A stretch of 63,165 nucleotides of DNA, filler included, from Reticulomyxa filosa (Eukaryota > Protista > Foraminifera): the NCBI GenBank assembly GCA_000512085.1. It is 21 parts of 21 records of this genome, joined end to end, with 100 filler letters (N's around TTAATTAATTAA, not from the genome) between each part and the next. Parts side by side here need not be neighbours in the genome. Positions count along the whole stretch, not along the records: positions 14,409 to 18,594 come from ASPP01004310.1; 20 more parts are not named here. One strand, 5' to 3'. The notes under the pieces are model-generated. The model saw only the letters and a list, made by a program, of their open reading frames with translations, was not told the DNA's origin and did not search any database. This document shows positions 14,409 through 18,594 of the stretch, one piece after another (the stretch's first letter is position 1; each line of letters opens with the position of its first letter). The translations under genes were made by a program, and so were the position numbers.

Positions 14409-14552
14409 AATAAAAAACTAAATTCAAAATTATATTTAAAAACTACACGATTTGTAGATATTTTTTTTTTAAATTTTGATTAAATGTTGTTTTTTCATGG
14501 AGAAACACAATCATCTCTATAAGGTGTCAACTTTCTTTTTTATCTTACTGTA
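14409..14552 (+). repeat. Dispersed ~130-170 bp repeat, copy 1
   Basis: Near-identical reverse complement of 38868-39036. Related copies at ~36463-36570 and ~59236-59362. Confidence 0.85.
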
Positions 14553-14819
14553 TATTGACAAAAGTTATTATCACTTTGGAGGTTGTTTAAAAATAACAAA
14601 TGGTAATTATTTTACTTAATTAATCAAAATGGATTAAACTATCTTTTGAACCATAACACAAATTAATACAACAACCACTATCACTGTTGCTTTTGCTGTT
14701 ATTTTTTATTGTGGAATTTAAATCATAATATTCTATTATCTTCTTTATCATCTCCTTAACCGCATACAATTCTTTTTTATTTGGTTGAATATCCCAAAAT
14801 CATATTGTATTCTTTTATT

Positions 14820-15505
14820 CTAGGGCATATTGCTTTGAACAGCAAGCACTCAAATTGTTAAACATATCGAATATATCACAAACGAACACTTTTATCTCTT
14901 GGCTCAGATAATATTGTATTTACTAATTTATTTCCTATTTTCTGAATTTGATACAAAGCAATTAGATTGAATATAATTATCAATTGTTAAAGTATCATGT
15001 TTAATACATTGAAATGTATTTAAATTAAATACACTAATATTAACAAGATAAGTAATAAATAACAAATTATTGCTTCTCCACCAATCACTACAGTATAATT
15101 ATCATTATCTCTTCCAATGATAATTGAATGATTGTGATTGTCTGTGAAAGGAATCCATTGATTGTAATTGTTTAATTCATTTGATTTGTTTGATATATCA
15201 CTCCAAACACTTATATATTTCATCATCAATGTATGGTTATAATCTCCACCAAAAGACAATAAAGTGATTTTATTATTGTCTTTGTTGTTGTCCTTATCTA
15301 CCAGTTTCACTACAGTGTCCCTATAATTCAACATCACTTGGATACGCACAGATCAACTTGTATTCATTTTTGAGTGTACGACAAGAATAACAAGCTCTTT
15401 TTTCATAACATCCACAAATGAAGAGTTCATGTTTGTGTAGCACATTGAGAATTTCTTAGTGGAATGGGCAACTCTTCCAAAATTTAAAAGTTTTCGTCAC
15501 TCATG
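14820..15505 (-). pseudogene. Kelch-repeat pseudogene (paralog of 5973-7293)
   Basis: ITLLSFGGDYNHTLMMKYISVW..., YNQWIPFTDNHNHSIIIGR and VVIGG are present, broken by frameshifts and stops. Confidence 0.8.
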
Positions 15506-16073
15506 TTGTAGTTTAATTTTTTTTAAAAAAAGGGAAAGCACATGGAAAAAGTCCTTTCTTTTTAAAAGTAAAAAGTGTAATTTGGCTAGAAAAACGAAAA
15601 TTAAGATTTTCTTATTATAAAATTACCACACAATTGCATATAATTATAGAATGTTTTAAAACTATATAAAAATCTTTGAAACATTGAAATGACTATTCAT
15701 CCTTTTTCCAAAAACAAAACAAGATCATCTTAAAAATTATTTTGTTTAAGTTCAGAAAAGAAAAAATTTATGCGTGAGATTTACACTGTCGAAAGTTGGT
15801 TAGTTTTGTTTGAAATTGGATGCAGCACGTATATATAGTTTAAACTGTTTTCAAAAGTTTTGTTAAAAATCTTTTGGAAGAAAAAGCTAAAGAGTGTGAA
15901 GTCAAAATATAACTGTTAAATTCGGTAAGATAATCAAGCCATTGGCAATAACAACAGCAATAAACTATGATTTTTTTTTTAAATTGGATGGAAATACAAA
16001 ATACGTATTGCCTTGTTTATACATATCCGTTCGATTGGAATCAACAACAATTTTAAAAAAAAACATGCAAAAT

Positions 16074-17894
16074 TCATAGTTTGTCACAGTAATCAGAAAA
16101 TACTGGCAACTCTTCTTTCAACCCTTTCCATTTTCTTGTTTGCAGTAAAACACGATAAGCATGTGTTCCTTCCTCCATTGGATTTCCAGCTATTAGTTTC
16201 CATTGGCTAAATTTCATTTGAGAGACTGCTTTTCCGTCAGTGCTTTGTCTCAACAAAGTAGTGAATCCAAAAGACTCCACGACGGGCAAATGTGCTCGCA
16301 CAACAAGTAATTTTGTCCTTGAACATTGTTGAATCTGTTCAATTTCTGCACGTCTGCTGTGCAAGGTGTTGATCACCCCTCCTTGCACATCTGGAGGAGC
16401 AACGATCTCCACCAAATATACTGGCTCCATAAGTCTCGGTCCACTCGCCAATTGGCAAGCATAGCATGCACGTTTAGTGCAAGGCATAATTTGTCCTGCA
16501 TTGCGACGAAGTGGATCAGGATGAAGCATGACACTTTCCAAATTGAAGCGAACACCGCGAAGAGGATTCTCACACAAAACGCCAGATCTGGTAGTATGCA
16601 TGAAAGCTGCAGTGACACTATCTCTAATTTCGTGTATATATTGTACCCCTTTGGTAAGATCAACAAGTACATTGGATATCCCATCCGGATAGCATCCAAA
16701 TGTCCAAACTTTCCGAGCCTCTCTAACATTCCACAAATATTTGTCTTCCAAATCACGAGCAAATACTTTCATATTTGTGATTTCCCCAGTTGGGATAGCC
16801 CCTATTTCGATGTCTTTCATAAATTCTTCCTCCAAAGGAGTCGCCCACATGAACAACCGGTTACGCTTGTTCGAGGACTCTGCTAAACATGTCTTGGGAA
16901 AAATGGAGTCAGTTCCGGTGCGGGTTGTAATGGTCTCTGTAGATAGCACAAGAGGCTCCGTTATGTTTATATCCTTTCCTTTCATTGTGCAATCTTCACT
17001 CAATATCTTCAGACAATAATCCAAATGAAATTCTCCTGCACTGGAAAGTACATGCTGTCCGGATGTATCCACGCATATCCTTGCAGAGGGCTCCAACTGG
17101 CTCAATCTTTTCAATCCTTGCACAAGATGAGACAAATCCGCTGGAGATTTGGAGTCAATGGCCACTTGCACGACAGCAGCCTTTGCGGTGGAATAGAAGG
17201 TGTTTCGGAATGGATAGAATTCTTTGCTATCAGTCAACGTCCCTGAATTCAATAAAAATTGATCCACATCCAATATTGTGCATACATTCCCAGCTGGACA
17301 GTCGTGAATTGGCTCTGGTTTGCACGTATATCCTCCCCCTCCGTTCCAACCGATGCTCCCAACTTTCTTTACATACAAATCCTGCTTTGCATTATATTCA
17401 TAATCTGGCCCCAAAATTCGAATCTCTTCACTTTCTTTAATTGTCCCACTAAACACTCGACCAAATGCATAACACTTTTGTCCATGATCTCCAAAAGGTA
17501 CCATTTTGGCAACGTATACTGACATGGGTCCACTCGCATCGCACTTTGCCACGGCAGCTGCTTCGAGAGTGTCCAAAGGGCCACTGTACAAGTTGACCAC
17601 ACGGTAATGCTGTGCCTCCAATGGAGATGGCAGCTGTCTTACCATCATATCCAATAATGCACGACTGGCTGGTATCCATGTACACATCACCTTTTTCATC
17701 AATTTCTTTGAATTTTGGAGCCAGGTGCCTCCAACGTCCATCTCTGCCTCTATCTCCTTCTGTTGCAATGACAATCGCAGTGCATTCACTATCGGCATTA
17801 ATTGGTCTTTCTTCCCAGCCATTATCGAGTCATACAGCGTTCGAATTGGATGCAACACAAACTGACAAAATCCTCTCATTAATTTACCCTCTGT

Positions 17895-17927
<33 letters not shown>

Positions 17928-18556
17928 TTTATTAATAATTACATTTTTTTGTCATTAAACAAAAATATGATATGTACATATATGTATACATACCAGAATT
18001 TTGAGTGACCCACTCTTTTGCAAGTGGGTCCCAATAGTGATCACCCCACAACATATTCAGCATCTTTTTAGTGGGCAAACCAAACTTTGATGCATATAAT
18101 CGAGAAAAATCACGCAATGTGAATCCCCATCCCTGAAGTCCACTTCCAAATGCAACGCGCTCAGTGTGTGGCAAGACCTTACCATGTCCATTTTTTTTTT
18201 TTTTTAAAAAAAAAAAAAAGTACTTTATATATGTGTATATATATATATACATATATGTGCATGTACATCAAACTTCATTGCTTTCCAAATTTTGGTATTC
18301 ATATGTTTGACAAATTACATTCACAGCCTCAATGATACCGGCGCAAATCTGATAGCAGTCTTCCAAAGGTGAACGCAACTCAGAAAATACACAGTCCAAC
18401 TTGTTCAAAAACAAAATGGGACGAACTCTGTCGGAAATTGCTTGTCGCAGCAAGGTCTCTGTCTGCATGCGCATGCCTTGCACACAATCCACCACAATCA
18501 ATGCACCGTCACTCACACGTAATGTCGTTGTTACCTCGCTCCAAAAGTCGGCAATA

Positions 18557-18557
<1 letters not shown>
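16074..18557 (-). CDS. EEF2: Divergent eukaryotic elongation factor 2 paralog (5' partial)
   Basis: Exons 18557-18274, ~18177-17994 and 17890-16074. Motifs: DF.SEVT..LRV.DGA..VVDCV.G...QTET.LRQA, NKLD, VAFGSGL.GW.FT, AFGRVFSG, GVQY..EI.DSV, PRLMEPVYLVEI, LPV.ESFGFT, and the C-terminal DKL typical of eEF2. Confidence 0.93.

Positions 18558-18594
<37 letters not shown>

Follow-up and report, generated by a model that had tools for sequence, protein, structure and literature searches.

An eEF2-like gene at a contig end

The window, that is, the whole 63,165-nt stretch of Reticulomyxa filosa DNA analysed here, is made up of short contigs with N linkers between them. The contig at positions 14409-18594 carries an eEF2-like gene (hereafter the window copy) on its minus strand. 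The gene's three visible exons and two GT..AG introns, with splice sites placed by homology, amount to 761 codons without a single stop. The 5′-most intron is cut by the contig end, which leaves its donor and all 5′ exons, including G1, G2 and the DxP of G3, off the contig. The features are as follows, the two loops of domain IV being listed after the exon that contains them:

18558..18594, minus strand: 3′ end of the cut intron, 36 A (18594-18559) followed by G (18558), with the acceptor AG at 18559-18558 (from the sequence and contig limits; splice placed by inference)
18274..18557, minus strand: first visible exon, encoding switch II, G4 and the G-domain core (Pfam GTP_EFTU, E 8e-17; aligns to yeast eEF2 108-195)
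18553..18555, minus strand: ATT (Ile) at the position of the catalytic His (yeast H108), Asn in the sister record P0121 (sequence, phmmer alignment)
18394..18405, minus strand: G4 motif NKLD, intact, with the next Arg changed to Cys in the window copy and in P0121 (sequence)
18178..18273, minus strand: GT..AG intron of 96 bp (placed by homology)
17994..18177, minus strand: second visible exon, encoding G5 (GSGL, 18147-18136, intact) and the start of G′ (sequence)
17891..17993, minus strand: GT..AG intron of 103 bp (placed by homology)
16074..17890, minus strand: terminal exon, encoding the remainder of domain I, domains II-V and the stop codon, open and without frameshift (sequence, Pfam)
16857..16880, minus strand: domain IV SPNKHN loop, here ESSNKRNR; intact in the sister P0001 (sequence comparison)
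16491..16523, minus strand: diphthamide loop, HADAIHRGAGQ changed to HPDPLRRNAGQ, with His to Arg at 16508-16506; the His is retained in both sisters (sequence comparison; P0152, on a separate 739-bp contig, has the same residues)

Domains G, II, III, IV and V follow one another in eEF2 order according to Pfam, the predicted model and the fold search. Five insertions are found in the terminal exon, each in frame, and structure prediction combined with a fold search gave this exon an eEF2 fold (pLDDT 81.7), an outcome that alignment to eEF2 tends to yield anyway. No match to the canonical N-terminus was detected in the window by tblastn (best E 0.054), an Atlas search with the window copy returned GTP_EFTU fragments only, and a survey of poly-T/poly-A tracts across the window produced no workable acceptor model. 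A poly-T/poly-A intron end like that of the window copy has been read through in the annotation of P0121. The GC content at fourfold sites (0.34 vs 0.12-0.19 in introns) was judged too weak a signal for use. The downstream part of the contig (14409-15500, minus strand) is an AT-rich relic in which coding-like stretches are interrupted by stops and frame changes. It gave no Pfam match at E 1, and it may resemble the kelch-like repeats of R. filosa.

Sister copies and descent

The window copy is likely one of three young, fast-evolving eEF2 copies in this foraminiferan. Its own protein records are P0151 (the third exon) and P0152, an identical 223-aa piece on a 739-bp contig that may be allelic, stem from a very recent duplication or reflect redundancy in the assembly. 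Copy B comprises P0121 (R. filosa RFI_22685), P0154 and P0153, which have consecutive accessions and are each on a 2521-bp contig; copy C is P0001, 74% identical to the window copy and located on a 3797-bp contig where its G domain is not visible. All copies are assigned to one genome on the basis of the names on the sister records, and the canonical eEF2 of R. filosa is present separately (P0132). The annotation divides copy B into three pieces, two of them from its last exon, and the first residues of P0153 correspond to a different reading frame of the window exon (9 of 19 residues, the last seven identical). This would point to a one-base frameshift, whether real or a sequencing error, and such a reading would place a non-His residue in the SPNKHN loop of copy B.

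In a quick maximum-likelihood tree of 41 rows, with no EFL1 or Snu114 rows among them, the window copy, P0001, P0153 and P0154 formed a clade with an SH-aLRT support of 100, placed among the foraminiferan eEF2s P0132, P0135 and P0138; its stem measures 0.64 substitutions per site, vs 0.025-0.047 in the canonical neighbours. Identity as EFL1 or Snu114 was rejected because of this nesting and because the window exon scores better against eEF2 (E 2e-25) than against EFL1 (4e-16) or Snu114 (3e-12). An earlier note on this DNA, made from the sequence alone, had called the gene an eEF2 paralog, a description with which the tree, and the canonical P0132 alongside, agree. The identity to the closest canonical relative is about 60%. 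Among 1.84 billion representatives, P0121 was the sole match below E 1e-30 for the window exon; no ortholog beyond R. filosa was found in the protein, representative and metagenome searches, in which foraminifera are thinly sampled, and a metagenome scan with the window protein gave 595 pattern matches and no confirmed relative.

A number of further divergent eEF2 paralogs were encountered. Among them are P0062, P0063, P0049, P0059 and P0285, four of which fall among foraminiferan-type eEF2s in the quick tree, and on this account eEF2 duplication seems frequent in the foraminiferan group. The diphthamide loops of P0062, P0063 and P0285 are altered (e.g. HSDPSHRGQGQ). P0128 (EukProt, Bolivina argentea), from a second foraminiferan, and P0130 (EukProt, Soliformovum irregulare), an amoebozoan record, are divergent, unrelated eEF2 paralogs. 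Both are eroded in G1-G2, the G core and domains II, III and V, and both keep the catalytic His and the two domain IV loops (domain IV changed at 1/40 and 4/40 sites, respectively); P0130 has G3 DSSSH and G1 SIDHGKSS, and P0128 a shortened switch I.

Catalytic histidine, domain IV tip and constraint

Past the A run and the G, the minus strand reads GT ATT GCC GAC TTT TGG AGC GAG GTA, and the exon translates as G-I-A-D-F-W-S-E-V-T in a frame that continues to NKLD, the first base of the G3 Gly codon being supplied by inference. In an ungapped phmmer alignment the Ile corresponds to residue 108 of yeast eEF2 (1n0u_A), reported as the catalytic His (PMC4896748). P0121, which is 84% identical to the window copy, reads ...YIYFFFFLKKK-G-N-V-E-F-W-S-E, i.e. 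an intron read-through followed by Asn at the His site. The replacement of the catalytic His by Ile that the earlier note had described was thus confirmed by the ungapped alignment and by a sister that also lacks the His, and the G4 motif was found intact at 18405-18394 as the note had said. Its caveat that the site adjoins a homopolymer at the contig end loses most of its weight: the codon does lie 40 bases from the end, but P0121 is His-less as well, at a site 22 codons inside its contig, making a contig-end artefact a very unlikely source of the loss. Only the exact residue, Ile (ATT) vs Asn (AAY), depends on the window contig.

The His is retained in 108 of the 109 proteins covering the column (P0121 is the sole exception), in all 28 metagenome loci covering the site (from 38 loci detected in a scan with the canonical P0135) and in 132 of 137 representatives at 50% identity, a further 12 of the 149 not covering the column; among the five non-His representatives, two appear misaligned. 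Long, mostly divergent eEF2-like representatives have it in 31 of 32 cases. P0364 (Papaver armeniacum), a degenerate plant eEF2 copy, shows His to Asn in switch II and has lost both tip loops, and the short fragments P0350 and P0413 have Ala and Asp at the site. In the present family a change from His to Asn likely came first, with Ile as a second step, since CAY to AAY to ATT requires two single-base changes and would be the simplest path. A conserved hydrophobic replacement was rejected because the sister residue is Asn. The H-to-hydrophobic variant that the earlier note proposed to follow through Rhizaria therefore does not hold as a conserved feature, and no ortholog was found in other Rhizaria. 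For the same reason the family is set apart from HAS-GTPases, in which a hydrophobic residue is conserved at the Gln/His site.

As to the consequence, EF-G H91A has been reported as inactive (PMC4718068) and, elsewhere, as only 7-fold slower (28 vs 202 per s; PMC4517844). By analogy, loss of the His likely impairs GTP hydrolysis and need not abolish it, so that 'required', the word used in the earlier note, was too strong; impaired hydrolysis is the part of its GTPase-deficient pseudo-translocase that stands, as a likely result of the His loss. Compared with a canonical eEF2, the window copy has G4 NKxD and G5 GSGL, the catalytic His that normally follows G3 DxPG is replaced by Ile (Asn in P0121), and the SPNKHN and HxDxxHRG loops read ESSNKRNR and HPDPLRRN. 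Judged by its sequence, it is an eEF2 by descent in which two defining features of a working translocase are missing.

Invariance classes were defined on 87 long eEF2s. In the window copy, changes were counted at 63/253 sites of the invariant class, 71/199 of the intermediate and 137/280 of the variable class; in four canonical relatives, changes at invariant sites ranged from 0/170 to 0/302. Neutral simulation carried to an equal divergence (37.4% of 745 sites) changed 37-38% of sites in each class, as against 25% of the invariant sites in the window copy. Likewise, no stop occurs in the 761 codons, where 21-27 were expected (minimum of 8 in 300 runs). A rough branch dN/dS, obtained from a codon alignment built on tblastn segments, was 0.14-0.48, a lower bound, with dS near saturation and pre-duplication time included. 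Neutrality is thus rejected along the whole path leading to the window copy. A long-dead pseudogene was rejected given the lack of stops, the in-frame indels and the below-neutral change at invariant sites; in the 761 visible codons and two introns, no stop, frameshift or broken splice site was detected. Constraint is much relaxed, the His being one of many losses: invariant sites are changed at 19/66 in the G core, 16/47 in domain II, 13/35 in domain III, 6/31 in domain V and 0/26 in G′.

Erosion of invariant residues in the GTPase core and in domains II, III and V is common to all copies, and G′ is retained throughout. Domain IV was spared in the sisters, with 1/40 invariant sites changed vs 38/117 elsewhere in P0001 (Fisher p 4e-5) and 1/31 vs 46/193 in copy B (Fisher p 0.008). 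Gene conversion as the cause was rejected because the domain IV variable sites of the sisters are as diverged as those elsewhere. In many other divergent eEF2-like proteins domain IV is not spared, and the His is kept by 31 of the 32 long ones, so the family pattern is not generic.

The window copy is the only one with both tip loops (as delimited in PMC6143161) changed, and its tip is the most eroded among the copies at this ribosome-reading end. Its private changes affect 7/20 tip-loop sites and 27/702 sites outside the loops (p 1e-5), a clustering that looks directed rather than drifting, although a two-window control chosen post hoc gives 0.22. The change of HRG to RRN includes, after the His-Arg pair, the Gly to Asn replacement that in parabasalid EF-2 was proposed to compensate for absent diphthamide (PMC6143161). 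Copy B has no catalytic His and retains HxDxxHRG, which indicates that the two losses occurred at different times; together they are two of the 63 changed invariants, and the pairing of His loss with diphthamide loss suggested in the earlier note thus does not appear to be a designed one. Outside the tip, private changes are equally frequent at invariant (8/235) and variable (12/268) sites (p 0.65), so that a recent release from constraint is possible. The probability of no stop on the window copy's own branch, 0.002-0.03 in simulations at a branch of 8-12% (the strict private count being only 4.7%), would argue for some remaining selection.

A possible GTPase-uncoupled family and its alternatives

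The explanation we tentatively favour, at somewhat short of an even chance, is an eEF2 offshoot family uncoupled from GTPase activity, whose members would dock but not cycle; the window copy would be a later member that has lost the tip and is drifting. In eEF2, 40S helix 5 and uS12 are reported to be contacted by domains II and III, the stalk base by domain V and P0 by G′ (PMC4896748). After duplication, the ancestral copy would have shed GTP-driven cycling through the change of His to Asn and the loss of the surfaces contacting the 40S body and stalk base, and would have retained a selected job for which the A-site tip and G′ are needed. In the simplest case the factor would dock on the ribosome but hydrolyse no GTP, serving as a plug or translocating slowly, in the manner of EF-G2 and Ski7. 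Docking is the economical reading because the catalytic His and residues in the surfaces coupling hydrolysis and release were lost while G4, G5, G′ and the A-site tip were kept. The window copy would later have lost the tip and drifted, Asn to Ile being a second one-base step at a disused site. Its protein likely still folds and binds guanine nucleotide, the ribosome is likely unable to switch it on, and it is likely not the translocase of the cell. It is equally possible that, with domains II, III and V eroded, the factor no longer binds the ribosome, in which case the docking step would be undermined.

That the window copy is itself a re-specialised, selected pseudo-translocase, GTP-locked like EF-G H91A and with a retuned tip, parking or inspecting ribosomes, e.g. 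in resting stages, we regard as unlikely; it is essentially the idea of the earlier note, which suggested action in ribosome hibernation, in quality control or as a decoy, all of them conjectural. The tip Arg and Asn would then replace the charge and amide of diphthamide. This reading is consistent with the open frame, the intact G4 and G5, the gathering of private changes in both tip loops, the parabasalid precedent for Gly to Asn (PMC6143161) and the report that EF-G H91A binds GTP normally and remains on ribosomes. However, no ortholog was found elsewhere, the residue that took the place of the His varies, no constraint is seen outside the tip on the own branch of the window copy, and the domains that contact the 40S have changes at about one in three invariant residues; moreover, mammalian hibernating ribosomes are reported to use ordinary eEF2-GDP through domain IV (PMC6226290), the surface altered here. 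Residual GTP hydrolysis, either slow or HAS-GTPase-like with a hydrophobic residue, would make the window copy a sluggish translocase. EF-G H91A does retain 28 per s (PMC4517844), and HAS-GTPases are reported to hydrolyse GTP with a hydrophobic residue at the site (10.1101/2020.08.16.253419), but the Asn of the sister is not hydrophobic, the G core is changed at 19/66 invariant sites, the H88Y variant of Mycobacterium smegmatis EF-G1 reportedly lost nearly all activity, and translocation requires the two tip loops, which are both altered, making this very unlikely.

The sparing of domain IV and the diphthamide His in sisters that have lost ribosome-contact and catalytic residues, together with the similar profile of the unrelated P0128 and P0130, could also reflect an off-ribosome decoy or sink for proteins recognising domain IV (diphthamide enzymes, bacterial diphthamide-directed ADP-ribosyltransferases), with the window copy as an escape or spent variant. 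Yet P0001 also keeps G′ and the SPNKHN loop, which fits ribosome docking equally well, the window copy is without the His that such enzymes modify, and a link of the organism to such pressure would be purely conjectural; we consider a decoy distinctly improbable. Fairly improbable, too, are redundant duplicates in slow decay, with the window copy a recent pseudogene and its His loss devoid of functional meaning. The inferred frameshift of copy B and its annotation in three pieces, the neutral look of the window copy's terminal branch, the degenerate plant copy P0364 (likewise His to Asn, with both loops lost) and the report of highly divergent species-specific eEF2 duplicates in protists (PMC4342817) speak for decay. 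Against it stand 0 stops vs 21-27 expected, indels that are all in frame, 25% vs 37% change at invariants, the strong domain bias, two visible introns with GT..AG ends and a dN/dS of roughly 0.14-0.48 (a lower bound), and the frameshift of copy B may be a sequencing error. Finally, the Ile codon, only 40 bases from the contig end, might be an error beside a homopolymer or a wrong splice call, the transcript in fact reading DxPGH. This is scarcely credible: P0121, in which the position is internal to the contig, is His-less there too, the surrounding G, D, F, S, E, V and T are in register, the stretch from the A run to the site contains no further AG, and a misreading between Asn and Ile, though possible, would not restore His.

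Several known systems resemble the family in part. The window copy has domains I-V, G4, G5 and the predicted fold in common with canonical eEF2 (yeast Eft1/2, PDB 1n0u; foraminiferan P0132, P0135), but differs from it in the catalytic His, in the two His of the domain IV tip and at 63/253 invariants, and the canonical gene is separate. Ski7, the yeast pseudo-GTPase derived from Hbs1, is likewise a young translational-GTPase duplicate with the G3 His replaced (by Ser), reported to bind GTP without hydrolysis (PMC4933942); it differs in being an EF1-family protein with an N-terminus that binds the exosome, of which nothing is seen here, and in its conservation between species, whereas the present signature occurs only in records of one species, within a thin foraminiferal sampling. 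Bacterial EF-G2 (Bacteroides thetaiotaomicron, M. smegmatis) is also an EF2-family paralog beside a canonical copy, with reports of little or no ribosome-dependent GTPase and of slow translocation or a stress role (PMC12775393, PMC12172202, 10.64898/2026.05.25.727771). It is, however, described as an ancient bacterial subfamily with EF-G1-like G3-G5 and a divergent G2, whereas the window copy lost the G3 His. In the Asgard/Korarchaeal EF-2 paralog aEF-2p both domain IV loops are lost, including the diphthamide His, as in the window copy, but G1-G5 are kept and GTP hydrolysis is predicted (PMC6143161); the order in the present family is reversed, the GTPase site having been lost first and the tip later, in one copy. 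The window copy also differs from the archaeal aEF-2p clade in nesting within foraminiferan eEF2 and lacking the G3 His. EFL1/Ria1 and Snu114 are eEF2-derived paralogs with other jobs, as proposed for this family, and aSelBL is another translational GTPase reported as His-substituted or GTPase-poor (PMC4342817, PMC6143161). No published account of this family, or of any His-less eEF2, was found in the literature searched, mostly open-access main texts; the supplements of PMC4342817 and PMC6143161 may list copies.

A broader and doubtful possibility is that amoeboid protists repeatedly evolve GTPase-uncoupled, tip-keeping eEF2 paralogs that park or move ribosomes without GTP, a eukaryotic counterpart of EF-G2. 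This family and, independently, P0128 and P0130 would be the first examples, and the window copy, with its Arg/Asn tip, a diphthamide-independent form. The family appears confined so far to one species, and GTPase-poor or His-substituted relatives are already known. As most very divergent eEF2-like proteins retain the catalytic His, a natural eEF2 family without it, yet open and with domain IV kept, is rare. If unexpressed, the copies would be an ordinary, tidy example of decay in a duplicated core translation factor. If expressed, the three would constitute a natural allelic series, with the tip kept or lost, bearing on EF2 docking and translocation without GTP hydrolysis or diphthamide.
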